Under the pieces are notes generated by a model that worked only from the letters and a program-made list of their open reading frames with translations, was not told where the DNA came from and did no database searches. Source: Escherichia phage A4. From it: 64,000 bases of DNA. Position 1 is the stretch's first letter. Every line of letters begins with the position of its first letter. Below are positions 1 through 64,000 of this stretch, piece by piece. Made by a program: the position numbers and the translations under genes. The stretch lies in the sequence record ON286972. One strand, written 5' to 3'.

Positions 1-2
1 AG

Positions 3-239
3 TTGTTGGATGTTGAAATTGCATCATATACTGTCACAAATCAATACGTTATCGAAGATGAACTTCGCAACAAATTTGATATAACACTGTACAGTACTGA
101 AGAAGAGTTGTTTCAGTTAAGTACTATCAGTGATGTGTGCACAACTGTCGAAGAGTTAGCAGACGTTAAGAAAATTATTGACACTGTGTACAACAAGATA
201 TACAATACATTCCATATCGAGAAACAATTGAAAGGGTAA
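3..239 (+). CDS. hypothetical protein, EE-x-Y-F-Q motif family (probably 5'-truncated at window edge)
   Basis: ORF runs from window start; C-terminal TEEELFQLS motif shared with many paralogs. Confidence 0.5.
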   Translation: MLDVEIASYTVTNQYVIEDELRNKFDITLYSTEEELFQLSTISDVCTTVEELADVKKIIDTVYNKIYNTFHIEKQLKG

Positions 240-243
240 CACA

Positions 244-504
244 GTGACTACAGTAGTTCGTAAACGCCACATGATGAACATGGATGAATTCCGTACATTT
301 GACAAATATCGCACTATGTTTCGTATGCTGACACAGGGGCGACCAATTGTCATTGTAACAGAAAATTACATGTCACCGGAAATCATGTTTGGTAATTATG
401 AAAAGGTTTTCATGTTGTATGTGAAGCGTGGATTATTAACTATCAAGACCTTAGCAGAAGCAACTGATGAAGACATGGATGGTGATAACACATTCACTAT
501 GTGA
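244..504 (+). CDS. hypothetical protein
   Basis: ORF (GTG start in track) in same-strand gene train. Confidence 0.4.
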   Translation: MTTVVRKRHMMNMDEFRTFDKYRTMFRMLTQGRPIVIVTENYMSPEIMFGNYEKVFMLYVKRGLLTIKTLAEATDEDMDGDNTFTM

Positions 505-580
505 GGAACTATGAGCGAAAAACCAAAAGAACCATTAGACCGTGATGATGATTACTACGACGAACGTTATGGTGATAAAG

Positions 581-832
581 ATGAGTGAACATAGTGCAGT
601 ACTAAAAAAGATTTTAAATGATATGGGTAGTGAATTTGAAGTTTCAGACGAAGAATATGAATTTTGGAAAAAGGATTTTGAACAACTGTCCGAGAGTGAT
701 AAAGTGTTCAATATGATTGGTGTGGTCAGTCAGTACATATTAGGCGGTGGTCGTGCTAGTGCTTCAATCCTTGCATCGGCAATCATCTGTACTGCCCGAT
801 GGTGTCAAGAAAAAAGTATTGACGATTTCTAA
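581..832 (+). CDS. hypothetical protein
   Basis: ORF 542..832 trimmed to in-frame ATG (MSEHSAVLKK); start uncertain. Confidence 0.4.
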   Translation: MSEHSAVLKKILNDMGSEFEVSDEEYEFWKKDFEQLSESDKVFNMIGVVSQYILGGGRASASILASAIICTARWCQEKSIDDF

Positions 833-890
833 ATTAGGAGATATAATGTTTGTATCAGAGAGAAAGAATGTATAAGGAATTATATTTTGC

Positions 891-1118: not shown

Positions 1119-3017
1119 ATGGAACCGATACGTGTACTATCACTATTCAATGGGATGAGTGTTGGGTATATGGCCTTGCAAAGTGCAGGAATACCAGTTG
1201 AAAAGTACTACTCATCTGAAATTGATAAATTTGCTATAGCTGAATCCCAGGCTAACTTTCCTGATATCATCCAATTGGGTGATGTAACTAGATGGAAAGA
1301 ATGGGATATCGAATGGGACAAGATAGATCTTCTGATGGGTGGTTTTCCTTGCTTCCCAGCAGGAACCATGATCATGACAAATGAAGGTCATAAAGATATA
1401 AAAGATATAAAAATTGGTGATATGGTTCTTACACACACTGGACAATACCAAAAAGTATTGAGTATTGGTAGCAAGATTGCACCAACAAGAATCATCACAG
1501 GTCAGGGACATATACCAATTGAATGCACTGATAATCATCCATTTTATGCGAGAAAAATGAGCAAGAAGTGGGATAATGAAAAACGACAATATGTTCGTGA
1601 ATATACAGAACCTACATGGATCGATGCACATGAACTCACAGAAGAACATGCTATATGTAATGTTCGTTGTAATGTGAATTTTCAACATAACAAGAGTGAA
1701 AGCTTTTGGTATTTCATGGGTAGATTTATGGGTGATGGATGGACTTACAAAGTAAAACGACAAAATAGAAAAAATAGTTATCAATATCGTGTTTTTATTT
1801 GCTGTGCTCATGATGAATTTGATGAATTGGTTTCATGTTTTGATGGTATGAATATGAAATATAATTTTGTTAAAGAAAGAACATCTTATAAATTCTATAT
1901 TTGTTCAAAAGAACTAGTTGAATTTTGTGAACAAATGGGTAAGGGTGCTTCAAATAAACAAGTACACCCCACACTTTTCACTGAAAGTATCGCTAATCAG
2001 AAAGCATTCATTGATGGTTATTTTGACGCAGATGGTCACCATGACAAGAAAGATGATTGTTTAAAATTTACATCAACATCAAAGAATGTTATTCTTGGTA
2101 TACAACAACTAATTATGAATGTGTATGGTCGTCATTCTAACATAACATACTTTAAACCGTCTGAAACAAAAGTTATAGAAGAACGTGTTGTTAATCAGAA
2201 GCCGTATTACGTATTAACATACAAAAAAGAAAAGCACCGAAAAGATGAAGCATTCTATGATGATGGGTCATATTCATGGGTAAAAGGTGTTAAATCGAAC
2301 ACCACAACCGGAGAATGGAAAACCGTTTACAATATTGAAGTTGCAGTAGATAACACATATACGGCGAACAATATTGTAGTTCATAACTGCCAAGCGTGGT
2401 CAGTTGCTGGGAAACAAGGCGGTGTGAATGATCCTCGTGGTATGTTATTCCATACAATGGTTGATATTTACCAGCACATAAAAAGTCTCAATCCTAACTT
2501 GAAAGTTCTTTTTGAGAATGTTAAGATGAAGGAAGATTTCAAGGATTATATCAATGGCGTGTTGGAAATGACACCAATTTTGATAAATTCACAAAATTAT
2601 ACAGCACATTATCGCCAACGTTACTACTGGTATAGCTCGGATAAGTTGTTTATTCCAAAACCTCTTATTTTAGCACCAAAATTACAAGATATACTAACTG
2701 GTAATTGGTATACTGATCGTGATAAATCATATTGCATTGACGCAAACTACTTCAAGGGTGGAGATCCGAATCAGTACTTCAATAAGTCAAGAAGACAAAT
2801 CGTTTTCAAAGACCCTGATATCAACAGGAACTTCCTGATTGAGAAGGGTAAACGAAATGTGGACTATCGTCATTTAACAGTACAAGAGTGTTGCATGTTG
2901 CAAGGAATTGATGTAAACTACTTCAAAGTTAGTAGTTCAACACAAGCGTACAAAATGCTTGGTAATGGCTGGACAGCACCTGTTATAGAACATTTACTAC
3001 GTGATATATTCTTTTAA
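1119..3017 (+). CDS. DNA (cytosine-5)-methyltransferase precursor interrupted by an intein
   Basis: N-extein ends ...LLMGGFP, C-extein starts CQAWSVAG (together motif IV GGFPCQ); ENV, RHLTVQECCMLQG and GNGW motifs in C-extein; SD AAGGA upstream. Confidence 0.85.
   Translation: MEPIRVLSLFNGMSVGYMALQSAGIPVEKYYSSEIDKFAIAESQANFPDIIQLGDVTRWKEWDIEWDKIDLLMGGFPCFPAGTMIMTNEGHKDIKDIKIGDMVLTHTGQYQKVLSIGSKIAPTRIITGQGHIPIECTDNHPFYARKMSKKWDNEKRQYVREYTEPTWIDAHELTEEHAICNVRCNVNFQHNKSESFWYFMGRFMGDGWTYKVKRQNRKNSYQYRVFICCAHDEFDELVSCFDGMNMKYNFVKERTSYKFYICSKELVEFCEQMGKGASNKQVHPTLFTESIANQKAFIDGYFDADGHHDKKDDCLKFTSTSKNVILGIQQLIMNVYGRHSNITYFKPSETKVIEERVVNQKPYYVLTYKKEKHRKDEAFYDDGSYSWVKGVKSNTTTGEWKTVYNIEVAVDNTYTANNIVVHNCQAWSVAGKQGGVNDPRGMLFHTMVDIYQHIKSLNPNLKVLFENVKMKEDFKDYINGVLEMTPILINSQNYTAHYRQRYYWYSSDKLFIPKPLILAPKLQDILTGNWYTDRDKSYCIDANYFKGGDPNQYFNKSRRQIVFKDPDINRNFLIEKGKRNVDYRHLTVQECCMLQGIDVNYFKVSSSTQAYKMLGNGWTAPVIEHLLRDIFF
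1350..2387 (+). mobile_element. intein (346 aa) with LAGLIDADG homing-endonuclease domain
   Basis: starts CFPAGTMIM, TDNHPF (block B), two LAGLIDADG-like motifs (FMGRFMGDGW, FIDGYFDADGH), ends NNIVVHN followed by Cys +1. Confidence 0.8.
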
Positions 3018-4417: not shown

Positions 4418-4421
<4 letters not shown>

Positions 4422-4861
4422 CAGTACTGCACCAATTAAAGAAAGTTAAACATCCGGTAGTTTATAATGATTGGCTACGCCAGAAGGAGATGGGGGACTT
4501 TTACTACCCAAAGTCTAAAGTACTGGCAACGTCAAAAACTATATACCTGAAATATAACGATGAAGATTGTTTGTGTATTCAAATGGGATTCCATCCTAAA
4601 GTTGGATTGTTTACATCAAATCAAACATTTTATAAATTTAGAATTCAAAAAGATACATTTAGTATTCACATTGAAAAGCATGACGTAGAAGATACAATAT
4701 ATCGTGTGGAAAGTGAGCCTTTGAATCTTGTTGGGATTCCGTACAATAATTTAGAAGAAATGTACTTTCAGCAGTTGACAATACAAGAAGACTTTGGTAT
4801 GATAGGACTTCAAGAGTTAGAGATGATTAAACAAATTCGTGATATCTACTTTAAGGAGTAA
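4418..4861 (+). CDS. hypothetical protein, EE-x-Y-F-Q family (EEMYFQQ)
   Basis: track ORF starts with TTG; ATG at 4418 overlaps upstream stop (ATGA). Confidence 0.55.
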
Positions 4862-4862
4862 T

Positions 4863-5006
4863 TATGCCAGTGCGTAACAGTACATCACGCTTTACACTTC
4901 AACAGAAAGCAGATCTTCTGAATATGGCTAATAAAGATTCTAATTTTTACTATCTAGTACTTGGTGGTTCAGTTGAAAAGATTGATCTACGCGAGTGTAT
5001 GAAATA
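4863..5006 (+). CDS. small hypothetical protein (about 47 aa)
   Basis: short ORF with AAGGAG SD, not in track (<60 aa); coordinates approximate. Confidence 0.4.
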
Positions 5007-5019
5007 ATAAGGGGACAAA

Positions 5020-5190
5020 ATGAGTCTGAGTGAATCCTGGAAACAGTTCAAAGAAGAGATTGGTTATCGTGGTGTATCGAGTGAACCAATCAATCGTACT
5101 GAAAGCATTAAGGCCAGTACTAACGGTACTACCTATGACCGATATGACCCACGTTACGGGTTACATGAAGAAGTCAAAAAAGAAGATTGA
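5020..5190 (+). CDS. small hypothetical protein (about 56 aa)
   Basis: short ORF with AAGGGG SD; preferred over overlapping track ORF 5030..5230; coordinates approximate. Confidence 0.35.
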   Translation: MSLSESWKQFKEEIGYRGVSSEPINRTESIKASTNGTTYDRYDPRYGLHEEVKKED

Positions 5191-5253
5191 CAATATATCG
5201 AGAGTGTGTGATAATACTCTCGTCTTTTAATTAAACAAAAAGGTAAAATAAAA

Positions 5254-5820
5254 ATGGCTGGATGTGAAAAGATTTGTGAATACAGTGATGAATATGTTGG
5301 ACATGAAATGTATCACCATAAACGCAATCATATTCAAGTACTATCTAAGCACAGAAAACATTTCCGTGGTAAAGAGGCAACTCTTTTTGTTTTTGAAAAT
5401 GGTTTGAAAGAAGTTTGGAAATCAGGTGGTCAATCCGACGCATCATTGGAATGTGTGAATCCCAATCCAACAGAAGAGAATTGGGATAATTATGAATACT
5501 TCCGCATGTTTAAACGTACACCGTGGGGTAAATCCGAATGCTATGCTGTGTTTTTTGAAAACCTCGATGAATACAAAGCTGCACTGAAACAGTTCCAGCA
5601 ACGACTGGTAATGGAATATGCATATTACCTGTACGTACCAGATGTACCAGGTAAAGTCGGTGGTATGTATCTTAACTTCTCAACTGATCTGAGTGCAGTT
5701 AAGCGTCGTTTGCGTCGTCTGGTAGGAACACGCAATCTTAAAATCAAATACATGAAAGGTGATTTCTGCGATTTCTATAATGAACAGAAATTGATTAGAA
5801 TCGGTTCAGAGGACATGTAA
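5254..5820 (+). CDS. hypothetical protein
   Basis: ATG ORF with AAAGG SD. Confidence 0.6.
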   Translation: MAGCEKICEYSDEYVGHEMYHHKRNHIQVLSKHRKHFRGKEATLFVFENGLKEVWKSGGQSDASLECVNPNPTEENWDNYEYFRMFKRTPWGKSECYAVFFENLDEYKAALKQFQQRLVMEYAYYLYVPDVPGKVGGMYLNFSTDLSAVKRRLRRLVGTRNLKIKYMKGDFCDFYNEQKLIRIGSEDM

Positions 5821-9069: not shown

Positions 9070-9080
9070 AATATATTACC

Positions 9081-9107
9081 CAGTACTTAGATACTGGGTA
9101 TTTTTTT
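9081..9107 (+). terminator. rho-independent terminator
   Basis: hairpin CCCAGTACT-TAG-ATACTGGG followed by TATTTTTTT. Confidence 0.6.
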
Positions 9108-10998: not shown

Positions 10999-11007
10999 AA
11001 CTATTTA

Positions 11008-11037
11008 TGAGTACTGCTTGCAGTACTCATATTTTTA
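11008..11037 (+). terminator. rho-independent terminator
   Basis: hairpin TGAGTACTG-CTTG-CAGTACTCA followed by TATTTTT. Confidence 0.55.
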
Positions 11038-12181: not shown

Positions 12182-12671
<490 letters not shown>

Positions 12672-12688
12672 TAATTAAAGGTTAAACC

Positions 12689-13067
<379 letters not shown>

Positions 13068-13068
13068 C

Positions 13069-14083
<1,015 letters not shown>

Positions 14084-14086
14084 TTC

Positions 14087-14242
<156 letters not shown>

Positions 14243-14270
14243 CAAAACGAAATGATAATAGGAAATTAAA

Positions 14271-14456
14271 ATGCAACTTTTAATTCTTTCAATATTGTAT
14301 ATTATTATAATGGTTCCTATATCAATACGTTTAATTATACTTGAACGATTTTTATCGAAACATGGAAATAGATCTATGATATTTGTACCAATCGGGCTTA
14401 TATTGTTTGGTATATTTGCATTTATAATGGGAATTAACGCTACATTCATTTCATAG
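14271..14456 (+). CDS. small membrane protein
   Basis: ATG ORF with AGGAAA SD; two hydrophobic helices. Confidence 0.5.
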   Translation: MQLLILSILYIIIMVPISIRLIILERFLSKHGNRSMIFVPIGLILFGIFAFIMGINATFIS

Positions 14457-14954: not shown

Positions 14955-14987
<33 letters not shown>

Positions 14988-15439: not shown

Positions 15440-15570
<131 letters not shown>

Positions 15571-31284: not shown

Positions 31285-31312
31285 TTGACATAAGATATCA
31301 GTACTGTATAAT
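31285..31312 (+). promoter_or_regulatory. sigma70-type promoter (TTGACA-N16-TATAAT, CAGTACTG before -10)
   Basis: shares CAGTACTGTATAATGTTTAT with promoters at 13025, 13435, 42875. Confidence 0.55.
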
Positions 31313-35183: not shown

Positions 35184-35425
35184 TGTTAATTTTATACGTT
35201 GTACTGATTTTATTAGTTAACTTTTCTCCAACTATTTTAACTTTAGTATGGGGTAAATTTTATGATGCTGTAAAAGTATTTCTCTTGAATACTGCATGGG
35301 TATTGGTAAGTCTGACTCTTTATTGGTCTACTGATTGGATGATGATTGTGAGTCATATACTACTATATATTTCATTCCTAATGTTGTTCCAAGAAAAAGA
35401 AGTACTTGACAAACTTGAAGGTTAG
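35183..35425 (+). CDS. small membrane protein
   Basis: track ORF 35141..35425 trimmed to ATG after AAGGAAA SD; hydrophobic helices. Confidence 0.5.
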   Translation: MLILYVVLILLVNFSPTILTLVWGKFYDAVKVFLLNTAWVLVSLTLYWSTDWMMIVSHILLYISFLMLFQEKEVLDKLEG

Positions 35426-35434
35426 ACCTATAAT
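35406..35434 (+). promoter_or_regulatory. sigma70-type promoter (TTGACA-N17-TATAAT)
   Basis: overlaps 3' end of upstream gene, precedes gene 35458. Confidence 0.5.
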
Positions 35435-42874: not shown

Positions 42875-42902
42875 TTGACAAACTCAACTAGTACTGTATA
42901 AT
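42875..42902 (+). promoter_or_regulatory. sigma70-type promoter (TTGACA-N16-TATAAT with CTAGTACTG before -10)
   Basis: same family as 13025 and 31285. Confidence 0.55.
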
Positions 42903-45176: not shown

Positions 45177-45416
45177 ATGAAACTATCTTTTATACGTTTA
45201 GCAGAATTCTTCGGTACTGATATAATTACTTTACAACAAATTGCAGACAATACTTCATTAAGTACACAAGAAGTACTTGACTTAGATGTGATAGAGTGTG
45301 ATAATACTTCTATCGATTATAAAGAAGGTCTTGTCGAAAAAGATAAGATTCAGGCTAAGATTAATGGTGCTGGACGGGTTCAGTACTGGAAAGGAGTTTT
45401 AAGTCATGCCAGCTAA
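45177..45416 (+). CDS. hypothetical protein
   Basis: ATG ORF with AGAGG SD. Confidence 0.55.
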   Translation: MKLSFIRLAEFFGTDIITLQQIADNTSLSTQEVLDLDVIECDNTSIDYKEGLVEKDKIQAKINGAGRVQYWKGVLSHAS

Positions 45417-47103
45417 ATTAACCCCTAAACAAGCAAAAGAAAAATTCAACAAAAAAGTATTAGAACATAACGTTCCAATTGAAGCTGATTATAGTAAGTA
45501 TGAAAATGCCAAATTAAAAAACATCCAAGTAGTTTGCAATGATGTATTAAAACACAAATCAGGCATATCACAAATATATCTTATGGATCACGCAAACCTC
45601 ACACACCCATCCAAAAAATTTGGTTGTCCTGAATGTGAAGACTGGTATAATGGTCATGCTAAAAGTTTAGATATTTTAATTGTTAGGGAAAGAATTAATT
45701 CTTGGATTAGTACTTATGGCGGGATTATTGATACGGTTAGTGGTGAAGTTGAAGTTTATAAAAATAATTCATCCAAAATACCATATATTTGTAAAAATGG
45801 AACTAAAAAAACGCTTACTATTTCTTCACTTGGCGATGAAATCGGTTGTAATTGTTCTAAATGTAAAGCTGAATTAATATCAGAAATCGAAGATAACAAT
45901 GAATATACATCCATGACTACTGTTGATGATTGTGTTACAATTTCCCATTTTAAATTTGGGGATGATGTTGCATTCTCGTGGATTTCACCATTGGAAATGA
46001 AAAAACATGGTTACTGTCTTGCCGAAAAAATGAAAGAAAAAGCATTGTCGGTTGGTAAAAATATTATTGGATATGCAATATCATCTCTTAGTGAATGGAA
46101 AAATGAAAAAACTCCTGTAATAACCGAACACGAAGGAGTATTATATCGTATTTCCAAAGCATCATATTTGATCAATAATAATATAGTACATAGACCACAT
46201 TATACAAAAAATAATTTTTTATATTATTTTTACAAATGTTCACCTAACAATCAACTTATTACACCAATCCTAATACCTGATGATATTGGTACAAAAAAGA
46301 AAATTAAAGTATGTTATAAATCATGTGGGTGTGAATATGATATATCTGTGGACGTTATAATGAACAGAAATTTAAAAACTTGTGGAAACTGTAAAAATAT
46401 AGATACTAATAAATTTATAGAACAGTGCTTGGAGTTCACTTCAAGTGGAGATTATATCTATGATAGAGTAAACTATATAAATCAAAGTACACCTGTAACT
46501 ATAGTTCATAAAATTTACGGCGAATTCAAAAGTACACCACAAAATCACTTAATACATTTAAAAAACGGTTTGAAATATGATACAGCTAACTTTAAAATAA
46601 AAAATTTAACTCAATTTAAAATTAAAGCAAATGAAGTTCATAATAACTTATATAATTATGATAAAGTTGATTATGTAAATTCTTCAACGAAAGTATTAAT
46701 AACTCATCCAGTATATGGAGACTTTTGGCAAACTCCAGCAAGTCACCTTGGTGGGTGTGGTCATCCACTTGCGGCTGGTCATTCTCAGCAATATGCATAT
46801 ATTCATAATATTTTGGATGGTGTTTTATCTGTAGCATTGAAATATGGGATTGAAAAGCAGAAAGGTAAGAGGGTGATGCAGCAAAATAAAAAATCCATGT
46901 TTCAAGTTCAATCTCTGTATACTTATTTTTTTCCATCTGTATACGAATGTAAGCAAGCTGAAAAAGAATGTAAGAAACTATTTGGTAAAGGTGTTTTAAC
47001 TAAACAAGAAATGCCAGACGGGTATACTGAAACAACTACACCAAACAACATAGATAAAATTATTGCCATCTATGAAAAATGGGGTGGGGTGAAACAAAAC
47101 TAA
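45406..47103 (+). CDS. Cys-rich protein with tandem internal repeats (candidate zinc-binding/DNA-binding protein)
   Basis: 565-aa ORF; multiple C-x2-C pairs (CPECEDW, CNCSKCKAE, CGCEYD, CGNCKN); repeated Y-D-x-V-x-Y-x-N-x-S-T-x-V-x-I-x-H-x-x-Y-G-x-F module. Confidence 0.6.
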   Translation: MPAKLTPKQAKEKFNKKVLEHNVPIEADYSKYENAKLKNIQVVCNDVLKHKSGISQIYLMDHANLTHPSKKFGCPECEDWYNGHAKSLDILIVRERINSWISTYGGIIDTVSGEVEVYKNNSSKIPYICKNGTKKTLTISSLGDEIGCNCSKCKAELISEIEDNNEYTSMTTVDDCVTISHFKFGDDVAFSWISPLEMKKHGYCLAEKMKEKALSVGKNIIGYAISSLSEWKNEKTPVITEHEGVLYRISKASYLINNNIVHRPHYTKNNFLYYFYKCSPNNQLITPILIPDDIGTKKKIKVCYKSCGCEYDISVDVIMNRNLKTCGNCKNIDTNKFIEQCLEFTSSGDYIYDRVNYINQSTPVTIVHKIYGEFKSTPQNHLIHLKNGLKYDTANFKIKNLTQFKIKANEVHNNLYNYDKVDYVNSSTKVLITHPVYGDFWQTPASHLGGCGHPLAAGHSQQYAYIHNILDGVLSVALKYGIEKQKGKRVMQQNKKSMFQVQSLYTYFFPSVYECKQAEKECKKLFGKGVLTKQEMPDGYTETTTPNNIDKIIAIYEKWGGVKQN

Positions 47104-54154: not shown

Positions 54155-54373
54155 GTTTATATCCTCATAAATTGATACCAATTCTAATGTATTTACCCAC
54201 TTAAAGTACAAAAAATGATCAATTAAATGGGGAATCTTTAACAAATGAATTCATGATGTACTTGATGAATTGCCCATACCAACGGATTCCTCAGTCCCAG
54301 CATACCACATGGTATTATCGAACTTTTTATCATTGTAGTATCATAACCACACCAAACATCATCAACATTAGTA

Positions 54374-55726: not shown

Positions 55727-55801
55727 ATATCCTCCTTTATTCATTATATTATATTTAATCAAAAAAGAAAAGCCAGTACAGAGTACTGGCATTTAAAATA
55801 A
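55727..55801 (-). repeat. conserved intergenic cassette (terminator hairpin GCCAGTAC...GTACTGGC + T-run, AT-rich TATAAT-containing promoter-like segment, AGGAGG SD)
   Basis: minus-strand reading TTTAAATGCCAGTACTCTGTACTGGCTTTTCTTTTTTGATTAAATATAATATAATGAATAAAGGAGGATAT-ATG; recurs 6 times. Confidence 0.65.
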
Positions 55802-56977
55802 TCAAAATGTAGGAAGTTTGAATTCTCTCATAACAGATGAACTGCTTGCAGATACATTATCTGGTGATTTCCCTGCGTAGTATAATTTATTATCAATGAA
55901 CATATACAATGTTGCATCATTTCCTGCTACAAGTGATTCACTTTTCTTAAATTTAACACCACTAGGTAAAATTGCTTCAACAAATGAACCTGATTCTCTT
56001 GTAGTATTATTTGCCAATTGACCATTGTTATTATAACCAGTACTATAAATTTTACCTGAACTATAATATACGAGTCCACGAGTACTAGTGTTTTCTATTC
56101 GAATGAATTCACTATCATCTGGGACTGTAGTTGATAGAACTGGGTTTAACTTATAAGCAGATGATACATTATTATTACCCAATTGACCATAACCTTGAAA
56201 GCCTAGTGTATACATAGGACATGATTCTGGTGTGCCTTTTGTTATAATACCAATATAATTCACACTACAAAAAATGTCTATTGCTTCTGTAATAGGTGTA
56301 CCCTTATATTGAACCCAAGGGAATACATACGATTGTTGCTTACCATTTCCCAAAGTACCGGAAGTTGTTGTCCCAGTACGCCACATTGTATCATCAAGTT
56401 TAATAATCCAGTTAGCTGTCGTTATCGATGAACAGAATTTTTTAACATTATCCACTAAAAATGTAAATTGATTATAATATGATGCAGTGTTTATACCAAA
56501 CTTAGCACCAGTATTATCACCTAACAAATATAAACTATTATCTGTACCTAAAATCAAAGCATAATCATAACCCACGTATATATCTTTAATTCTTGAAATT
56601 CCAAATTGTGTAAAATAGCTTGTACATTCTGTGAATGTTGTTATATTATTGGTTGTATTATTACCTAGCCATTTATCTAAACCACTATAAAAGAATCTAT
56701 CATCATTTGTGCGTATTAGACAAAAAGCGTTCATTGTACTGCACCAAAAATCTTTAACATTGCTATATATTTTTGTCCATTCAGTTACTGCATTAGTATG
56801 ACCTAAACCAAAAATTCCACCATTCTGAAGACCAATAGCCCATATTGAACCATTTTTATCAAGCATCATTGTACATGTATGTGAATAACCACCCGATGGT
56901 GTAACTAATTTAACAAAATTGGGAATATATGGTAAAACTTTATTTCCATAATCCAACATTCTAACAAAAGGTAACAT
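55802..56977 (-). CDS. RCC1-like beta-propeller protein with MLPFVRMLDYGN leader (array member 7)
   Basis: SD AGGAGG + ATG; motifs GSIWAIGLQNGGIFGLG, GKIYSTGYNNNGQLANNT. Confidence 0.7.
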   Translation of the reverse strand: MLPFVRMLDYGNKVLPYIPNFVKLVTPSGGYSHTCTMMLDKNGSIWAIGLQNGGIFGLGHTNAVTEWTKIYSNVKDFWCSTMNAFCLIRTNDDRFFYSGLDKWLGNNTTNNITTFTECTSYFTQFGISRIKDIYVGYDYALILGTDNSLYLLGDNTGAKFGINTASYYNQFTFLVDNVKKFCSSITTANWIIKLDDTMWRTGTTTSGTLGNGKQQSYVFPWVQYKGTPITEAIDIFCSVNYIGIITKGTPESCPMYTLGFQGYGQLGNNNVSSAYKLNPVLSTTVPDDSEFIRIENTSTRGLVYYSSGKIYSTGYNNNGQLANNTTRESGSFVEAILPSGVKFKKSESLVAGNDATLYMFIDNKLYYAGKSPDNVSASSSSVMREFKLPTF

Positions 56978-57048
56978 AATTCCTCCTTTATTCATTATAC
57001 TATATTTAATCAAAAAAGAAATGCCAGCATCAAGTACTGGCATTATTG
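56978..57048 (-). repeat. conserved intergenic terminator/promoter/SD cassette
   Basis: hairpin ATGCCAG...CTGGCAT + T-run + ATATAGTATAATGAATAAAGGAGG. Confidence 0.6.
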
Positions 57049-58239
57049 TTATAGTTGTCTTGGTGTATCAAGTACATATCTATTTGTACTAGGACCACCA
57101 TCATCATACGTTCCGGTTGAATATATATTTTTCATATCAGCAGTTAGAAAAGTACGATACGAACCGCGATATATTTTTATTTTATCATACATAGAATATG
57201 ATATTTCTGCTGGCATTGGACATATAGTAAATCTACCAATAGTAACATTAGAACCAACACCCAACGAACCAGCATAACTACTCGCATTTAAACCAGTTGC
57301 ATATACACCAGTACTCGTAACTAGTATACTAGATTGTGTTGGGTATCCTGTATGAATTGAATACAAAGTTCCAGTTGGTAATGTCGTACTATTGCTCCCT
57401 AATACAGCAAGTGCCGAACTGGTTGTGGTATTGTTACCCCATGCACCATTACTCGCTAAACCACCAACTAGAAACTGACGTGCACCAGTACTTGGATTCT
57501 CAACCAAAGCACTGACTGCACCACTTGAGCATCCAGTGTATTGTAACGTTTTTGTGTATGTTGTACTTGGTTTATATAAAGTATATTCATTAAATGGTGT
57601 CCATGTGGTACTGGTACTTATACCTGACGTACCACCACCAATATATAAATTATTTTGTGTATCAAAAAACATTACACAGTTATTTGTTGACTGTATTTGT
57701 GCAATATCAACATTAGGCGTGACAGCTTTTACAAATGATCCATCTGTTATTTGTTGAGTACTACCAGTACCATCAGCGAATTGTCTAGCCCCACTCCAAC
57801 CAGTACTCCATATTGTATTATTATCCATTAATACCGTAAACCACGTAGTACCTCCATACATCTGTTTAATTGAAGTACTTGAACTTTGCGTGTACAAATT
57901 TTCAATATATTGGTTATAACTTAAAAACGTAGTAGTACTAGTTGGTAAACCAATATGATCACCATATCCACAATAAAAATAATTTGAGTCATTATCTTGT
58001 ACTAACAAAGTTCCTTGTGACACCCAGAAATCTTTAACATTTTCTCTAATTAAGGTCCATGACTTTACTGCATTACTATTTCCTATACCAAACTTCCCAA
58101 AACTATTATTTCCACGTGCGTATAGTTGACCATCCGTATAAAGAACGACAACATCTAAATCAGTTGGTGTTATTTTCTTAATTTGAATAGGGACTGGTGT
58201 TATATTCCCATAATCAAACATTCTAACAAAAGGTAACAT
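57049..58239 (-). CDS. RCC1-like beta-propeller protein with MLPFVRMFDYGN leader (array member 6)
   Basis: SD GGAGGG + ATG; motif GQLYARGNNSFGKFGIG. Confidence 0.7.
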   Translation of the reverse strand: MLPFVRMFDYGNITPVPIQIKKITPTDLDVVVLYTDGQLYARGNNSFGKFGIGNSNAVKSWTLIRENVKDFWVSQGTLLVQDNDSNYFYCGYGDHIGLPTSTTTFLSYNQYIENLYTQSSSTSIKQMYGGTTWFTVLMDNNTIWSTGWSGARQFADGTGSTQQITDGSFVKAVTPNVDIAQIQSTNNCVMFFDTQNNLYIGGGTSGISTSTTWTPFNEYTLYKPSTTYTKTLQYTGCSSGAVSALVENPSTGARQFLVGGLASNGAWGNNTTTSSALAVLGSNSTTLPTGTLYSIHTGYPTQSSILVTSTGVYATGLNASSYAGSLGVGSNVTIGRFTICPMPAEISYSMYDKIKIYRGSYRTFLTADMKNIYSTGTYDDGGPSTNRYVLDTPRQL

Positions 58240-58310
58240 ATTTCCCTCCTTTATTCATTATACTATATTTAATCAAAAAAGAAAAGCCAGTATCAAGTAC
58301 TGGCCTATAT
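58240..58310 (-). repeat. conserved intergenic terminator/promoter/SD cassette
   Basis: same cassette family (GCCAGTACTTGATACTGGC hairpin). Confidence 0.6.
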
Positions 58311-59480
58311 TTAAACTGGTGAATCTAATACAAATTCTAAACTACTAATGCCACCATATGTGACATTTGTCCCTGTGCTATATACAAAATTACCATCAGT
58401 TATATAAGTTCGGTTATACCCACCTGCCATCTGCGACTTACTATAATCAAACCCATCAGGAACGATTGCTTTGGTATATACTAATGCATTATTAGATGTA
58501 CCAATACCTAACATACCAGCTCCTGAAGATTTATTGTAGCCGCAACAATATATACCATCTGTTGTAGCAATAACTTGGTTATAATATGAAGTAATGTTAG
58601 CAATGCTTACTACATCACCGGGTGGCATTAGTGAAGCAGTTTGAACCTCAAATGCTCTATAATCACTGAGAGAACCATTTATCCCATCTGCTTGTGCACC
58701 AAATATTCTCGAACCGCCATTTGCGATGATGGTTTTACCAGTGGGATCAGTACCAATTGCCATTGCCATTGAAGTACTATTCTCCATATAGTACTTGATA
58801 TTAATTGTATTTCTTAAGCTGGTAGGAGCACCATAATATATAGTATATAACTTACCTCCTGAACTTGTAACTGCATTTACTCTTCCTGTATAAAATAGCC
58901 ATCCTTGGTTTGTAACATAACCGTGCATTAAATTACTTGCAAACAATTTAACAGGTAATTGATCTGCTGCGGTCGGAACAGTACTTTTGACGAATTTTCT
59001 AGCAACATTGTTAGTTGTTGTCCCATCACCCAACTGACCATCACCCCCTGCTCCAGTACTCCATATTGTTTGGTCTGTTAGTAATACACTTGTAGTCTGA
59101 TAACTAACTGCTATATCTAATATTGGTAATGTTAACGTATCGAATGTTGGCATAGCAGAAGTCCATATTGATACTGCTGCCCCTGGCATACCAACAGTTG
59201 TTGAACTTCCACTGTACCATATTTCATCATTGCTTTTCTTAATAACTATCGACGTGGCTCCCATCCAAAAATCTTGAACATCAGAAGTGCTAAAAGTCCA
59301 TGTAGTAACAATATTTTTGTGACCTAAACCCAAAAGACCATTTGTATTCTCACCACGCACATATAAATCACCACTGTTTGTTAAAACAGCAACATTATAG
59401 TTGTTAGCTAGTATTTTTTTAATATTTGGTTTAGCAGGTGCAATATTCCCATACTCTAACATTCTTACAAAAGGTAACAT
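58311..59480 (-). CDS. RCC1-like beta-propeller protein with MLPFVRMLEYGN leader (array member 5)
   Basis: track ORF extends upstream into cassette; trimmed to SD-proximal ATG; motif GDLYVRGENTNGLLGLG. Confidence 0.7.
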   Translation of the reverse strand: MLPFVRMLEYGNIAPAKPNIKKILANNYNVAVLTNSGDLYVRGENTNGLLGLGHKNIVTTWTFSTSDVQDFWMGATSIVIKKSNDEIWYSGSSTTVGMPGAAVSIWTSAMPTFDTLTLPILDIAVSYQTTSVLLTDQTIWSTGAGGDGQLGDGTTTNNVARKFVKSTVPTAADQLPVKLFASNLMHGYVTNQGWLFYTGRVNAVTSSGGKLYTIYYGAPTSLRNTINIKYYMENSTSMAMAIGTDPTGKTIIANGGSRIFGAQADGINGSLSDYRAFEVQTASLMPPGDVVSIANITSYYNQVIATTDGIYCCGYNKSSGAGMLGIGTSNNALVYTKAIVPDGFDYSKSQMAGGYNRTYITDGNFVYSTGTNVTYGGISSLEFVLDSPV

Positions 59481-59550
59481 AATTCCTCCTTTATTCATTA
59501 TATTATATTTAATCCAAATAAGAAAGCCAGTATCAAGTACTGGCATTGTG
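59481..59550 (-). repeat. conserved intergenic terminator/promoter/SD cassette
   Basis: same cassette family. Confidence 0.6.
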
Positions 59551-60660
59551 TTATTTCGGTAAATCAATTTTAGTAAAGACTGCAACATCCTCGCTTGCAC
59601 CGGGAATGGCGTAATACGTTCCAGTACTATATACATCTCCATTTTTGGTTAATATTGAAGTCAAACCATCACTAAAAAGAACATCCCTAATCTCACTAAC
59701 TTCAACGGGTAATTGTAAATTTGTAGCACTATATATAGCACCAGTTTGAGAATTGTTTAATCCCAAACCACGGTTCGCCCCAACACCCTTCTGATATGTA
59801 CTGGTAATTACCATTTGTGTAGCAGTATTTAATGCAGGTGAATTCGTCATAAACAACGGAGAACTATTAGGCAAAGTACTTACAGGAACTGCACGGAATG
59901 TAGTCGTACCTGAACTAAGAAAGTTTGGAGTTTGACCACATACGAAATATGATGTACCATTATAGTAATTAAATGCATTACCACCAATCGCTGCATCGAT
60001 TACACCAGAACTACGTAATCCCCAAGTGTTAATTTGTGTTTGGTCCCCTGTACCATGCTGCCCACTGCTATTCCATCCAGAACTATATAGCTTATTATCT
60101 AATGTAATATACATACTATCATTTGCATTAGTCATTACTTTACGCACGTTAGTAGCACATTGAGTTAATGTGTAAATCGATGATGAGCCAATACCTAAAG
60201 AACCACGATATCCATTATCTCCTGCACCATAGAGTACTGAACTAGTGCTAAGTACAAATATTAAACCATTTGTACATACAATATTAGCAATTTCACTCAC
60301 TGGTATAGCATTGGTAAACCAATTAGTCCTTTCAACTAATATAGTACTGTAAGAAGTAGTTGTAGAAGATGAGAACCAGTACGTTTCACCCGATGTCCAT
60401 ATCGTATTATCATTTTTAATAATAACAAGTGTACGACCACCCACGAAAAAATTAGAAACATCTGAACTTACTAATATCCATGAAGATACCGTGTTGTTAT
60501 TACCATTTCCAGATTCACCACCTTGATTTCTACCTATGTAATATAAATCATGTGAATCAGTCAATAAGAATTGACCCTGTGTAGAAGCACCAACTTTAAT
60601 TATATTTTTAGGACCGGGTACAATATTCCCGTACACTAACATTCTTCCAAAAGGTAACAT
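59551..60660 (-). CDS. RCC1-like beta-propeller protein with MLPFGRMLVYGN leader (array member 4)
   Basis: SD AGGAGG + ATG; motifs HDLYYIGRNQGGESGNG, NKLYSSGWNSSGQHGTG. Confidence 0.7.
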   Translation of the reverse strand: MLPFGRMLVYGNIVPGPKNIIKVGASTQGQFLLTDSHDLYYIGRNQGGESGNGNNNTVSSWILVSSDVSNFFVGGRTLVIIKNDNTIWTSGETYWFSSSTTTSYSTILVERTNWFTNAIPVSEIANIVCTNGLIFVLSTSSVLYGAGDNGYRGSLGIGSSSIYTLTQCATNVRKVMTNANDSMYITLDNKLYSSGWNSSGQHGTGDQTQINTWGLRSSGVIDAAIGGNAFNYYNGTSYFVCGQTPNFLSSGTTTFRAVPVSTLPNSSPLFMTNSPALNTATQMVITSTYQKGVGANRGLGLNNSQTGAIYSATNLQLPVEVSEIRDVLFSDGLTSILTKNGDVYSTGTYYAIPGASEDVAVFTKIDLPK

Positions 60661-60733
60661 AATTCCTCCTTTATTCATTATACTATATTTAATACAAAAA
60701 AGAAAAGCCAGTACTCTGTACTGGCATATTACA
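60661..60733 (-). repeat. conserved intergenic terminator/promoter/SD cassette
   Basis: same cassette family (GCCAGTACAGAGTACTGGC hairpin). Confidence 0.6.
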
Positions 60734-61876
60734 TTATTTCCACGGTAGAAGTGAATCAGGAACTCTGGTTGGTACTCTAACGGCTGGAACATTTCCAAGT
60801 TCAGGTAAACCACTCATATACAAATTGTTATTTTCATCAATTATCATTGAATAGAAATTATCAATTACGAAGCCTGAAATTCGTCTTCCTTCTAATGCAT
60901 CAAGAACCATTTCGGTGAAAGTTAGTATATTTTCGGATGTTTGATTAACACCACATGCACCATAGGTATTTCGACCACAAGTATATAACTTATTATTATT
61001 TTTAACAACACATCCATTCCCTTCGTTGTTGGATAAACCACCCACCAACTCTATTTCACCTTGGAATGATAAATTGGGAATTAATGTACTCATTGGTACT
61101 GCTGATACTGTACCTACACCAGCTTGACCATATGCATTTGGTGAAGCAACCTTCACTGAACCATCATTAAGAAATATATATGAAGTACGGTATGTATTTA
61201 CAGCTTGTATAGCATTGGTGATAGTATTGTCTTTTGTAAAACTTAATATATTTGATGTTTTTGTACTACCAGGAGCAACAGTATTTCCTGCATACCAATA
61301 GGAGCCATCATCAAGTACTAACCCAGTACTGAGCAAAGAACAGCCATAACTTTTAACATTTTCTATAGTGCTGTATCTGAACGATGTGACATTAGCTGTT
61401 GACGCGTTACCAAATACACCACCTTCGCCAGAACCACAGTAGAACCATTTTCCATTTTTTAAAAATACACGCAAATTCTGCCCAACAGCAATACCATCAA
61501 TATCATCAGCACTGACACCAAAATCAGTGAAGTACTGGGTTACATCAATCCAAACCCCATTTGTATTTGTTCCGATTTGTGGCATTACTATACTAGCACC
61601 TGTGAACCAAATAGTTCCATCATTCTTAATGGCAATGGAACCAAGAACACCACCCCAGTAACGTTCAATATTATTATTCACACGGGTCCATACGGTGGAT
61701 GATTGTAATGAACCATTACCACCTTGTCCAAATGAAGATGAACCATACCAGTACAAGTCACCATTAACATGCAAATAAAAACGAGTATTATAATTTGCTT
61801 GTAATCTATTTTTAAATAGAGGTTTTGGTTCCGGTGCAATATTCCCGTACTCTAACATTCTAACAAAAGGTAACAT
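60734..61876 (-). CDS. RCC1-like beta-propeller protein with MLPFVRMLEYGN leader (array member 3; near-duplicate of member 2)
   Basis: 380 aa; N-terminus MLPFVRMLEYGNIAPEPKP and C-terminus ...VPTRVPDSLLPWK shared with 61949..63091. Confidence 0.75.
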   Translation of the reverse strand: MLPFVRMLEYGNIAPEPKPLFKNRLQANYNTRFYLHVNGDLYWYGSSSFGQGGNGSLQSSTVWTRVNNNIERYWGGVLGSIAIKNDGTIWFTGASIVMPQIGTNTNGVWIDVTQYFTDFGVSADDIDGIAVGQNLRVFLKNGKWFYCGSGEGGVFGNASTANVTSFRYSTIENVKSYGCSLLSTGLVLDDGSYWYAGNTVAPGSTKTSNILSFTKDNTITNAIQAVNTYRTSYIFLNDGSVKVASPNAYGQAGVGTVSAVPMSTLIPNLSFQGEIELVGGLSNNEGNGCVVKNNNKLYTCGRNTYGACGVNQTSENILTFTEMVLDALEGRRISGFVIDNFYSMIIDENNNLYMSGLPELGNVPAVRVPTRVPDSLLPWK

Positions 61877-61948
61877 AATTTCCTCCTTTATTCATTATAC
61901 TATATTTAATACAAATAAGAAATGCCAGTACTCTGTACTGGCATTATA
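61877..61948 (-). repeat. conserved intergenic terminator/promoter/SD cassette
   Basis: same cassette family. Confidence 0.6.
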
Positions 61949-63091
61949 TTATTTCCACGGTAGAAGTGAATCAGGAACCCTTGTCGGTACATTTGTAGTA
62001 GACACCCCATCAAGATTTGGTACACCGCATGTATATAAATTATCAGCATCGTCAACTAACATCGTATAGTTATATCCCCTACAAAAACTACTAACATTAC
62101 GACCTTCTAATGCAGTAAGAATCATTTCAGTGAATGTTGTTATATTTGTCGAGGTTGAACCAACACCACATTGTCCATTTGAATTAAGACCACATAAAAA
62201 TAACTTATTATCATTTTTAATTATACAGGATGGTCCAGTAAGGTTTGTACCAAGCTCACCCACTAACTCTATTTCACCTTGGAATGCTAAATTTGGAATT
62301 AATGTACTCATAGGGGCTGGTGTTGTATTCCCAGTACCTGCTTGACCACGTTCGTTGGAAGATGCAACTTTAACTGTTCCATCACTAAGAAATATATAGG
62401 AAGTTTCAATTGTATTGACTGCTTTAATTGCAGTGCTGATAGAAGTTTCTTGTGTAAATCTTAGCACGTTTTGTGCTGACGTTCCCGATATAAACGTATT
62501 ACCTGCATACCAATATGTACCATCATTGAGTACTAATGCAGTACTTCGAATTGCACAACCAGCACTTCGAACATTTTCTATAGTACTGTACGTGAATTGT
62601 GAAACGCTTGCCGATGAACCATTTCCGAATACACCACCACTCCCAGCACCACAGAAGAACCACTTTCCATTTTTCAAAAATACACGCATACACGCAGATA
62701 TAACAATACTATCAATATCATCAGCACTGACACCGAAATCAGCAAAGTGCGATGTCACATCAACCCAAACACCGTTAGTGTTTGATGCAATTACTGGAAT
62801 AACAGAACTTGTACCAGTGTACCAAATAGTACCATCTTTCTTTATCGCTATTGTTCCTTGAACACCACCCCAATATCGTACAACATTTGTATTGACGAGA
62901 GTCCATGCGGTTGAAGAGTTCAATGAACCATTACCACCTTGACCATATGATGAAGAACCAAACCAATATAGATTACCATTGGTGTGTAAATAAAATTTGG
63001 CATCTGCCGAGCATTGTAACCTATTTTTTAATCGTGGTGCGGGTTCCGGTGCAATATTCCCGTACTCTAACATTCTAACAAAAGGTAACAT
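61949..63091 (-). CDS. RCC1-like beta-propeller protein with MLPFVRMLEYGN leader (array member 2)
   Basis: 380 aa; motifs GNLYWFGSSSYGQGGNG, NKLFLCGLNSNGQCGVG; only 12 bp (GGAGG SD) after upstream gene. Confidence 0.75.
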   Translation of the reverse strand: MLPFVRMLEYGNIAPEPAPRLKNRLQCSADAKFYLHTNGNLYWFGSSSYGQGGNGSLNSSTAWTLVNTNVVRYWGGVQGTIAIKKDGTIWYTGTSSVIPVIASNTNGVWVDVTSHFADFGVSADDIDSIVISACMRVFLKNGKWFFCGAGSGGVFGNGSSASVSQFTYSTIENVRSAGCAIRSTALVLNDGTYWYAGNTFISGTSAQNVLRFTQETSISTAIKAVNTIETSYIFLSDGTVKVASSNERGQAGTGNTTPAPMSTLIPNLAFQGEIELVGELGTNLTGPSCIIKNDNKLFLCGLNSNGQCGVGSTSTNITTFTEMILTALEGRNVSSFCRGYNYTMLVDDADNLYTCGVPNLDGVSTTNVPTRVPDSLLPWK

Positions 63092-63103
63092 AATTCCTCC
63101 ATA

Positions 63104-64000
63104 TTATTTAAAAACATACTGCGTATTAACACGAGTGCCATTGTCAAAACCAAGTACATAAAATATCTCAGCACTATTCTTAGAACCAAATAACGCACCA
63201 GTACTACTACTCAAAGTAGTATTAACCGCTAAGGGAATCCATATGTCTTCTTCTGCATCGTATCTCAATAAATTTAATGCACCATACGACACTGCATATA
63301 TATTTTTATCATATGTACTGTAACATATTTTACTAGGGTTATTACCACCAACTGGTGCTATGTTAGACCACACCGCACTTTGTATATGATATTTTTGTGC
63401 AGTACTAGTACCTTGACCAGTAATATATATGTAAGTACCATCCGTACACATATCACCACCTCCATTGTTATTTGTTCCATCACTTGTACCTAATGATGAC
63501 CATGTATTAGTACTTGGAGTATAACTGTATAACGAATTATTAGTAGGCGAACCCCACAAATATATCTTATCCCCAGCAGTAATCATCTTACTATACGCCA
63601 GTTGACTAGGCTTCCCAATACTGTTAGTGTTCAGAATCCATGTATTTGTACTTATATTATATACATAAAAATTATTACTACTATTACCTGAACCACCAAA
63701 CAAATATATTTTTCCCTGATAAGCACATAACGCACTACCAAATGTAGATACAGGTGCATTGGCTAATTGTGACCACGTTCTTGTAGTTAAATTAAAACTC
63801 CATAACTGATTATCCGTCTGCACCGCATTCTGTATACCACCAAATATATAAGCAATATTACTTTCCGCATCATACGTATAACCAAAGTTATTTCGTGCTG
63901 AAGGTACTGGTGATGTAGTAAATTGTGTTCGTACTCCACCATTTGGGCCAGGTAATGGACCTACATTCCCGAACTCAAACATTCTTACAAAAGGTAACAT
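63104..64000 (-). CDS. Kelch-like beta-propeller protein with MLPFVRMFEFGN leader (array member 1)
   Basis: start codon is the last 3 nt of the window; repeated ...TNTW/TRTW... blade motifs (STNTWILNT, STNTWSSLG, TRTWSQLA). Confidence 0.7.
   Translation of the reverse strand: MLPFVRMFEFGNVGPLPGPNGGVRTQFTTSPVPSARNNFGYTYDAESNIAYIFGGIQNAVQTDNQLWSFNLTTRTWSQLANAPVSTFGSALCAYQGKIYLFGGSGNSSNNFYVYNISTNTWILNTNSIGKPSQLAYSKMITAGDKIYLWGSPTNNSLYSYTPSTNTWSSLGTSDGTNNNGGGDMCTDGTYIYITGQGTSTAQKYHIQSAVWSNIAPVGGNNPSKICYSTYDKNIYAVSYGALNLLRYDAEEDIWIPLAVNTTLSSSTGALFGSKNSAEIFYVLGFDNGTRVNTQYVFK

Follow-up and report, generated by a model that had tools for sequence, protein, structure and literature searches.

AGTACT is a highly iterated palindrome in 121Q/RaK2-type jumbo phages and in an unrelated prophage-like element

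The closest described analogue of the genomic word treated here is HIP1 (GCGATCGC) of cyanobacteria, a short hyper-abundant palindrome that occurs in all reading frames and in coding as well as non-coding DNA, is conserved above background, and has a function that is unsettled even after such statistics (PMC5861425, PMC4390886). Further systems with which it can be compared are the Chi octamer (GCTGGTGG), the DNA uptake sequence (DUS) of Neisseria and the uptake signal sequence (USS) of Haemophilus, the restriction sites that phages avoid, and the binding sequence of the nucleoid-occlusion protein SlmA. Here we analyse the hexamer AGTACT in a 64,000-base stretch of the genome of Escherichia phage A4 (ON286972; 34.7% G+C; hereafter the window), for which an earlier note, made from the sequence alone, had claimed a strong over-representation of this palindrome with more than 100 copies. 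An exact count gave 176 copies (2.75/kb) vs. 18.3 ± 4.2 (maximum 27) in 100 dinucleotide-preserving shuffles of the window, an excess of about 9.5-fold that surpasses the earlier estimate.

Abundance and placement of AGTACT in the window

Exact k-mer counting with Markov expectations, the check proposed in the earlier note, placed AGTACT first among all 4096 hexamers for over-representation (z = 36.7 at order 1 and 12.6 at order 3), with an observed/expected ratio (O/E) far from 1. The expected numbers are 21.8 (order 0), 18.5 (order 1), 35.6 (order 2), and 70.5 (order 3), while the 145.7 obtained at order 4 cannot serve as an independent null, since the motif itself inflates the pentamers AGTAC and GTACT. 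Ranks 2 and 3 are held by CAGTAC and GTACTG, which are extensions of AGTACT, and CAGTACTG alone is present in 38 copies. The eighteen one-mismatch neighbours have 6–58 copies each (511 in total), and among the sixteen xGTACy words only AGTACT is enriched, with the other GTAC words near expectation and GGTACC and CGTACG absent. AGTACT is thus statistically a highly iterated palindrome, many-fold above both Markov and shuffle models. The two clusters that had been counted by eye were also recovered, with five sites each in the first 3 kb (93, 120, 598, 1204, and 2773) and between 13.9 and 15.3 kb (13973, 14546, 14975, 15096, and 15209).

The sites are spread over the whole window (7–17 per 4-kb bin) with near-random spacing (coefficient of variation 0.89). 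A cytosine precedes the core in 83 and a guanine follows it in 82 of the 176 sites, accompanied by a weak preference for T at −3/−2 and A at +2/+3, and beyond −1/+1 the information content of the flank logo is near zero. This C(−1)/G(+1) preference is two-fold symmetric, and coding sites do not differ from non-coding ones in this respect, whether in the window or in 192 kb of phage 121Q. No two site contexts are the same. An interspersed repeat, such as a miniature inverted-repeat transposable element or a repetitive extragenic palindromic-like sequence, was therefore rejected, as similarity ends at the core plus C(−1)/G(+1) and the flanks are unrelated.

That AGTACT also occurs inside coding sequence, as the earlier note had stated, holds for 148 of the 176 sites. 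All three frames are used, with 66 sites read as Ser-Thr (AGT ACT), 36 as xAG TAC Txx, and 46 as xxA GTA CTx. A shuffle of synonymous codons that keeps the proteins and the codon usage predicts 34.4 ± 5.2 coding sites, vs. 149 observed, and peptide contexts able to encode AGTACT do so in 47% (Ser-Thr), 54%, and 39% of cases in the respective frames, where 8–13% would be expected. Among the dipeptides of the proteome, the strongest over-representation is that of Val-Leu and Ser-Thr. The synonymous-codon and codon-order shuffles, together with the occupancy analysis, rule out a codon or dipeptide artefact; AGTACT overrides codon choice and amino acid sequence and is therefore selected at the DNA level. 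Like HIP1, it is dispersed in coding and non-coding DNA, independent of frame, and not part of a longer repeat.

Codon supply may be linked to this load. AGT is the commonest serine codon in the window (427 uses), and six tRNA genes lie among repeated promoter cassettes at 12491–15560. Two of them, tRNA-Ser(GCU) and tRNA-Thr(UGU), may compensate for the AGU/ACN codon load created by AGTACT.

A minority of sites occupies fixed regulatory positions (Table 1). The earlier note had placed AGTACT just before the −10 box of promoters and in terminator stems, and both observations were reproduced. The promoters, located by the start of their −35 box as in that note, lie at 13025, 13434 (given there as 13435), 31285, and 42875, with a variant at 13958, and the stems are those of the hairpins at 9077–9100 and 11006–11031. 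Three further AGTACT terminator stems are found on the minus strand, and near-identical copies of the hairpin GCCAGTAC-TCT-GTACTGGC lie at about 61924–61942 and 58286–58304 (approximate positions). These placements look like operator positions, and part of their number is due to duplication of promoter cassettes. In the arrays of small early genes of 121Q, we found 16 copies of AGTACTGTATAAT, 13 of AGTACTTGCAA, and 5 of AGTACTGGCATAAT.

Table 1. Positions of AGTACT-bearing and related features in the window and in the small prophage-like element (loci L137–L139)
Feature	Position	Strand	Remarks
AGTACT sites, 176 dispersed	1..64000	.	preferred context (t t C)AGTACT(G a a); 148 coding, 25–28 intergenic
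C5 cytosine DNA methyltransferase	1119..3017	+	exteins 1119–1349 and 2388–3017; short enzyme
Intein (Hint + LAGLIDADG) in the C5 methyltransferase gene	1350..2387	+	0 AGTACT in 1,038 bases
Terminator-like hairpin TACCCAGTACTTAGATACTGGGTA, then T run	9077..9100	+	AGTACT in 5' arm
Terminator-like hairpin TATGAGTACTGCTTGCAGTACTCATA	11006..11031	+	AGTACT in each arm (11010, 11022)
Sigma-70-type early promoter TTGACT-N9-AGTACT-G-TATAAT	13025..13052	+	AGTACT at 13040–13045 fills the spacer beside the −10 box
Second copy of this promoter cassette, upstream of tRNA-Gly	13434..13461	+	AGTACT at 13449–13454
Variant promoter TTGACT...AGTACT-GATAAAAT, upstream of tRNA-Ser	13958..13986	+	AGTACT at 13973–13978
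tRNA-Ser(GCU)	13993..14082	+	phage tRNA gene; decodes AGU/AGC
14-bp perfect palindrome ATTCAGTACTGAAT, intergenic	14971..14984; second copy 15092–15105	.	same 14-mer after stop codons in 121Q
tRNA-Thr(UGU)	15487..15560		phage tRNA gene; decodes ACN
Promoter TTGACA-N9-AGTACT-G-TATAAT	31285..31312	+	AGTACT at 31300–31305
AGTACT over −35 box, AGTAC-TTGACA-N17-TATAAT	35401..35434	+	class of AAAAGTACTTGCAA-N17-TATAAT, recurrent in 121Q early cassettes
Promoter TTGACA-N9-AGTACT-G-TATAAT	42875..42902	+	AGTACT at 42890–42895
Zinc-ribbon/HNH-type homing endonuclease open reading frame, mobile	45406..47103	+	1 AGTACT in 1.7 kb, 4.7 expected
Hairpin GCCAGTAC-TCT-GTACTGGC, downstream of RCC1-like paralogue	60707..60725 (approximate)	-	read from sequence context
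Left-end structured region of the small element	L137 (Leclercia G3L) 1664–1803; L138 939–992; L139 882–946 and 1749–1778		

It could be argued that AGTACT is a building block of promoters and terminators and nothing else, multiplied by the duplication of early cassettes. This would account for the many early promoters with AGTACT beside the −10 or over the −35 box and for the terminator stems. It would also agree with the higher density in non-coding (5.5/kb) than in coding DNA (2.9/kb) of 121Q and with two-fold peaks 0–40 nt after stop codons and 40–80 nt before start codons in that genome. However, only about 12–15 of the 176 window sites have a fixed regulatory placement, compared with dozens in the 121Q early cassettes, and 84% of the window sites as well as 487 of 630 (77%) in 121Q are intragenic. 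They are moreover flat along genes, lie in three frames with unrelated flanks, and are equally enriched in the structural and replication regions of phages RaK2, GAP32, and CBB. The coding counts refute a promoter or terminator element as the sole explanation, which we consider very unlikely, and a secondary use of this kind is possible.

Two observations on neighbouring genes concern the same regions. The minus strand of the window from 51217 to 64000 encodes at least nine paralogous RCC1-like repeat proteins (344–674 aa), each followed by a near-identical hairpin, and 121Q has about 15 such paralogues, annotated as ‘DNA condensation’ proteins. Furthermore, a gene for a sigma-70-family sigma factor (28409–29371; phrog_351, E = 2e-50) is a homologue of 121Q gp167.

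Distribution in jumbo phages and in a second lineage

The window comes from a jumbo coliphage of the 121Q/RaK2 type that is related to, but diverged from, the 348-kb phage 121Q (genus Asteriusvirus); a conserved ATPase-like open reading frame led to this assignment. Its order matches that of 121Q from about 62 kb onward, and the alignable parts are 83–92% identical. A close homologue of T4 endonuclease V (DenV, a pyrimidine-dimer glycosylase) at 44450–44887 offers a clue to T4-related ancestry. AGTACT is the top hexamer in every sampled relative of the 121Q/RaK2 group, with 630 copies in 192 kb of 121Q (3.28/kb), 909 vs. 103 expected in the whole 350-kb genome of TH47, where CAGTACTG is the top 8-mer, and O/E values of 10.6 and 20.3 in two regions of RaK2 (Klebsiella), 8.0 in GAP32 (Cronobacter), 7.8 in CBB (Pectobacterium), and 7.4 in XaC1, whose record names Xanthomonas as the host. 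A 100-kb sample of E. coli DNA contains six copies (0.06/kb), so that the density in the phages is about 50 times higher. On a large scale the density is uneven, with an early region of small open reading frames (ORFs) reaching 6–8 AGTACT/kb and adjoining arrays of paralogous ORFs of about 70 aa having none over 4–8 kb (121Q 134–154, 155.5–159.6, and 161.8–169.4 kb; TH47 71.8–80.2 kb).

The same genomes are depleted of other palindromes to an extreme degree. GCGC is absent from the window (about 26 expected), from the 350 kb of TH47, and from the sampled regions of 121Q, RaK2, GAP32, CBB, and XaC1, whereas the 100-kb E. coli sample has 715 copies. TH47 lacks 23 of the 64 hexamer palindromes, and 23–28 are missing over the genomes, including the sites of PstI, SacI, SphI, SalI, KpnI, and MscI. 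The GCGC purge may serve to evade host restriction or a GCGC nuclease encoded by the phage itself. AGTACT itself, the ScaI site, was rejected as the target of a type II (ScaI-type) restriction-modification system that the phage avoids, as it is enriched while most other hexamer palindromes are purged. Purging and AGTACT enrichment always occur together, in both phage lineages described here, and more distant members of the wider group have neither the enrichment nor the absence of GCGC: AGTACT O/E and GCGC counts are 0.7 and 43 in Vibrio phage 2.275.O, 0.2 and 47 in Pseudomonas phage PA5oct, and 2.5 and 24 in Salicola phage SCTP-2. The Vibrio phage carries 7-deazaguanine synthesis genes at 333–337 kb (QueF-like reductase, QueC, and GTP cyclohydrolase I), a different route to DNA protection.

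A second, unrelated lineage with the same word was found by scanning IMG/VR for three AGTACT within about 80 bases and then counting densities. Besides pieces of jumbo phages, the scan yielded contigs that encode an HK97-type capsid-protease fusion, a lambda GpA-type terminase, a tape-measure protein, and a J-like tail fibre; these morphogenesis genes show no relationship to the T4-type ones of the jumbo phages. In these contigs, too, AGTACT ranks first among the hexamers (O/E 8–17) and GCGC is absent; C(−1) and G(+1) are found in about 60% of the sites and G at −1 is rare, as in the jumbo phages. The 29 IMG/VR contigs of this family hold 1,096 AGTACT in 304 kb. The capsid protein is identical to one of Leclercia adecarboxylata and 96% identical to a chromosomally encoded one of Leclercia sp. 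G3L, and the element, about 33 kb long and prophage-like, sits in chromosomal contigs of Leclercia, Phytobacter, Yersinia pekkanenii, and Rouxiella. In these chromosomes it has 2–5 AGTACT/kb, no GCGC, and 33–44% G+C, vs. 47–56% G+C in the hosts. An IS1 inserted in the element of Leclercia sp. G3L is an internal control, as its 2-kb bin has no AGTACT and 17 GCGC, and the host flank likewise contains GCGC and lacks the motif.

About 22 kb per locus was examined in Leclercia sp. G3L (CP088265.1, 4198663–4220471; L137) and at five further loci (L138–L142), and these parts comprise packaging, head, tail, and lysis genes plus a few ORFs of unknown function, with no integrase or replication gene seen in them. 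The IMG/VR contigs extend about 0.8 kb past the lysozyme gene and add no new genes there. The element is a candidate complete phage, defective prophage, or gene transfer agent-like element. Its left end has a conserved structured region with 3–4 AGTACT in about 140 bases (...CCAGTACTGAACCG...GGTTC...CCAGTACTGAGTACTACC; Table 1). The closest isolate to the small phage, Escherichia phage DCP80 (PQ671644.1), shows no AGTACT enrichment. The first ~25 kb of positions 1–50000 of its record encode a siphovirus-type terminase and capsid and the rest T4-type genes (motA, ndd, and rIIA twice), which suggests a chimeric assembly. A scan of metagenomes for AGTACT clusters added a single jumbo-type locus and gave no clear sign of a third lineage; most matches were tandem repeats or local clusters. 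One contig with 62% G+C (Ga0105044_10001082) has 43 AGTACT in 13.4 kb, vs. 0.7 expected, together with abundant GCGC, and this is probably a local repeat family rather than a phage signature. The combination of AGTACT density and GCGC absence is a simple signature by which such phages and prophages can be recognised in metagenomes.

Selection on sites and candidate readers

Conservation of individual sites was measured in the 22.6 kb of the window that align to 121Q at 82% identity. There, 44 of 60 AGTACT sites (73%) are kept in 121Q, vs. 39% for all other hexamers, and identity is 0.90–0.93 at each of the six core positions (0.92 inside sites) compared with 0.84 in the flanks. The sites thus diverge at about half the rate of their flanks and, by a hand calculation, their loss runs at roughly a third of the background rate. 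The replacements at lost sites are scattered and show no C-to-T excess. Conservation above background is also seen in the small prophage lineage (79% vs. 55%, and 44–47% vs. 16%). A rough estimate that assumes equal mutation rates is that the 511 one-mismatch neighbours and the slow loss would balance if each site conferred a weak advantage, with a scaled selection coefficient of about 2.

Over 519 genes, the counts per gene follow a Poisson distribution or are slightly under-dispersed (chi2/df 0.88), and along genes the sites are flat; like the estimate above, this fits selection on the overall density rather than on a few essential sites. The mobile inserts, namely the intein, the homing-endonuclease ORF, and 121Q gp221, a homing-endonuclease gene without AGTACT in 1,464 bases, together contain one site vs. 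about 12 expected (Poisson P ~1e-4, calculated by hand). The homing-endonuclease ORF of the window belongs to a family of zinc-ribbon repeat proteins ending in (G/P)DGYTET (phrog_681 ‘endonuclease’), also found at 4421–5284 of the prophage locus L138 and at 42880–43812 of TH47. The family occurs in both phage lineages, not in every member, is poor in AGTACT, and behaves as a mobile homing endonuclease.

With these data at hand, a neutral origin of the excess as a mutational or compositional by-product, be it codon-pair bias, a sink for purged palindromes, or polymerase bias, appears highly improbable. Genomes that purge about 23–28 hexamer palindromes and all GCGC clearly have a shaped composition, and GTAC is the double-deamination product of GCGC. 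Yet only A-GTAC-T is enriched among the xGTACy words and GGTACC and CGTACG are absent, the sites are conserved above their flanks and override codon usage and amino acid sequence, and the prophage, which is copied by host enzymes, carries AGTACT while its flanks do not.

With a rough probability of 0.55, we favour the interpretation that AGTACT is a dyad-symmetric recognition site by which phage DNA is marked and on which weak but pervasive selection acts. The sequence ttC-AGTACT-Gaa would be kept at about one per 300–360 bp genome-wide by weak selection on each site, and would serve as the recognition site of a two-fold-symmetric, sequence-specific protein, either a dimeric binder or a DNA-modifying enzyme. 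The overall density rather than any single site would matter, marking phage DNA and concentrating the reader there, and this reader could have a further effect on transcription where sites adjoin early −35/−10 boxes or lie in terminator stems. Three points here are inferred: AGTACT is read by a protein, selection acts on density, and the reader is either a conserved protein of enterobacteria or a small phage protein that can be exchanged. With six AGTACT in 100 kb of E. coli, the 4.6-Mb host chromosome probably has no more sites than a single phage genome, and such a protein would therefore be drawn to phage DNA. ttCAGTACTGaa is the duplex that we name as a probe for a specific AGTACT binder.

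Several observations weigh against this interpretation. The preferred −1/+1 bases are conserved no more than background, the flank preference could partly be a neighbour effect, and directional repair or a gene-conversion drive would give similar conservation statistics. The Vibrio relative lacks the trait, though its capsid is nearer that of GAP32 than is the RaK2 capsid (identity to the CBB capsid is 81% for Vibrio phage 2.275.O and 79% for RaK2), and the trait was therefore lost there or gained more than once. XaC1 has it with Xanthomonas recorded as the host, which weakens the case for a reader restricted to Enterobacterales. A Pfam scan of 97 small window ORFs matched four families, none of them DNA-binding or methylase. 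Lastly, comparison of the small phage with the whole of TH47 and with pieces of RaK2, GAP32, and CBB (tblastx and blastp) revealed as common genes only the T4-type lysozyme and the mobile zinc-ribbon endonuclease, the latter present in one small-element locus. In 10 prophage ORFs, the Pfam scan found no DNA-binding or methylase domain either.

The general idea of the earlier note, that AGTACT is a protein-binding or modification site, agrees with the DNA-level signal, the two-fold symmetric flanks, and the conservation of all six core bases; its two candidates, a phage methyltransferase and a phage DNA-binding protein, were not supported, the former for the reasons given below and the latter since no such domain was found in the 97 small ORFs. 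The C5 cytosine methyltransferase of the window has the catalytic domains of DNMT3A/B as its closest solved relatives and probably methylates CpG. This fits RaK2 DNA, which is reported to be heavily methylated, with CpG methylation according to bisulfite data (PMC3622015). In phage muut, a 50%-identical homologue coexists with only 2 AGTACT (5.6 expected) and 67 GCGC. These findings make the enzyme unlikely as the reader or writer of AGTACT. Its gene is interrupted by a 346-residue intein exactly at the catalytic Cys in motif IV (GFP|C...HN|CQAWS), and the 121Q homologue gp91 is intein-free.

In a HIP1-type model, AGTACT would be the target of a phage methyltransferase and accrue through methylation-linked biased repair of the very-short-patch type or through a function of the methylated sites. 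We regard this as rather unlikely. The model has a precedent in cyanobacterial HIP1, the target of orphan methyltransferases (PMC4390886, PMC5861425), and candidate enzymes exist, as the phage encodes the C5 methyltransferase and 121Q gp417 is a predicted Dam-family N6-adenine methyltransferase (PF05869). The heavy methylation reported for RaK2 DNA would also fit. The C5 enzyme is, however, DNMT3-like, the bisulfite signal of RaK2 is mCpG rather than AGTACT, muut lacks the trait despite its homologue, and the replacements at lost sites are scattered without a C-to-T excess. In addition, no methyltransferase was seen in the ~22 kb per locus of the prophage family, and the integrated prophage replicates with the host, yet host flanks and IS1 are without the motif.

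Since an unrelated prophage family has the same motif and no shared candidate gene, a reader specific to this phage is less likely, and we rate a conserved host reader or a small, fast-evolving, exchangeable phage protein above a phage methyltransferase. One host-based alternative is a Chi-like ‘self’ signal, at which a translocating host nuclease or defence complex is attenuated or redirected and which, being a palindrome, works both ways. It would agree with the apparent selection on density and not position, the even coverage of resident genes, the ~50-fold contrast between phage and host, and the occurrence of the same word and flanks in two unrelated lineages of the same host order without a common candidate gene. 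Canonical Chi is itself above expectation in TH47, with 23 copies (6 plus, 17 minus) vs. 2.7–10 expected depending on the Markov order; the window has three. Conversely, AGTACT is not the recognition site of any known nuclease, the Chi sequences known so far are asymmetric with a strand bias, other sampled E. coli phages (muut and the DCP80 record) are not enriched, and the proposal is inferential throughout, so that we consider it improbable.

A host protein whose binding sequence has AGTACT at its centre is SlmA (consensus GTGAGTACTCAC), which antagonises FtsZ when bound to DNA and requires G1, T2, and a purine at position 3 (PMC3020112). Phage sites could act as decoys, and binding of SlmA to them would block host division in infection. 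The flanks refute this at the sequence level and leave the idea scarcely credible: no match to the SlmA pattern GTRAGTACTYAC exists among the 909 sites of TH47 or the 176 of the window, half-sites (GTRAGYRCTYAC: G1, T2, purine 3, A4, G5) number 17 and 10 vs. 23.7 expected from base composition, and G is the least used base at −1.

A more specific form of the favoured reading, in which AGTACT is a marker recognised in phage DNA, is that it acts as a viral ‘identity word’. It would be read by a conserved enterobacterial DNA-binding, processing, or defence protein or by a small protein exchanged among phages, and unrelated phages, on the one hand virulent jumbo myoviruses of 350 kb and on the other prophage-like elements of ~33 kb, would have filled their genomes with it independently at about one site per 300 bp, recoding proteins and purging nearly all other palindromes of the restriction type. 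We put this forward tentatively, as a possibility with the odds against it. If true, no highly iterated palindrome would have been described in viruses before, and phage DNA would be discriminated from host DNA in a novel manner that requires no base modification. Any protein that reads AGTACT would represent an unrecognised layer of phage-host DNA recognition in well-studied hosts (E. coli, Klebsiella, and Yersinia), strong enough to reshape codon choice and dipeptides over 350-kb genomes, and removal of AGTACT may reduce the fitness of synthetic or recoded therapeutic jumbo phages.

Comparison with known systems

A highly iterated palindrome in virus genomes has apparently not been described so far, as a full-text search within the searchable literature retrieved no paper linking AGTACT to these phages and the genome papers checked are silent on it. 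Among the systems named at the outset, the avoidance of restriction sites by phages is displayed by the same genomes in an extreme form, with GCGC and 23 of 64 hexamer palindromes missing in TH47, but AGTACT shows the opposite behaviour with an approximately ten-fold enrichment. The SlmA-binding sequence shares the identical central hexamer and SlmA is a protein of the same host order, but the required flanks are missing from all AGTACT sites of TH47 and are, if anything, avoided.

Chi resembles AGTACT in being a word over-represented through genes, the density of which alters how a host enzyme treats the DNA, a property that is only proposed for AGTACT. The two differ in that Chi, which RecBCD reads, has a strand bias and a frequency of about one per 4.5 kb, whereas AGTACT is about ten times denser; moreover, a Chi-type hotspot is an asymmetric, oriented word for RecBCD or AddAB, and a perfect palindrome has no orientation. 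The DUS and USS are likewise self-identity words that occur about once per kb, inside genes and as inverted pairs in terminators. In contrast to AGTACT, they are non-palindromic and read by the competence machinery of their own cell, while AGTACT is found in phages of bacteria not known for natural competence.

The closest analogue remains HIP1. AGTACT exhibits three of its statistical hallmarks but is an analogue and not a member, as sequence and genome type differ: HIP1 is an octamer of the cyanobacterial chromosome, and AGTACT a hexamer with weak flanks in virus and prophage genomes of Enterobacterales. Furthermore, a cognate methyltransferase is known for HIP1 and none was found for AGTACT, which is instead accompanied by the extreme purging of other palindromes. 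The long-standing question raised by HIP1, why a single palindrome should come to fill a genome, has a tractable model in these phages, as they grow on E. coli K-12, AGTACT is a ScaI site, and both host and prophage can be engineered.

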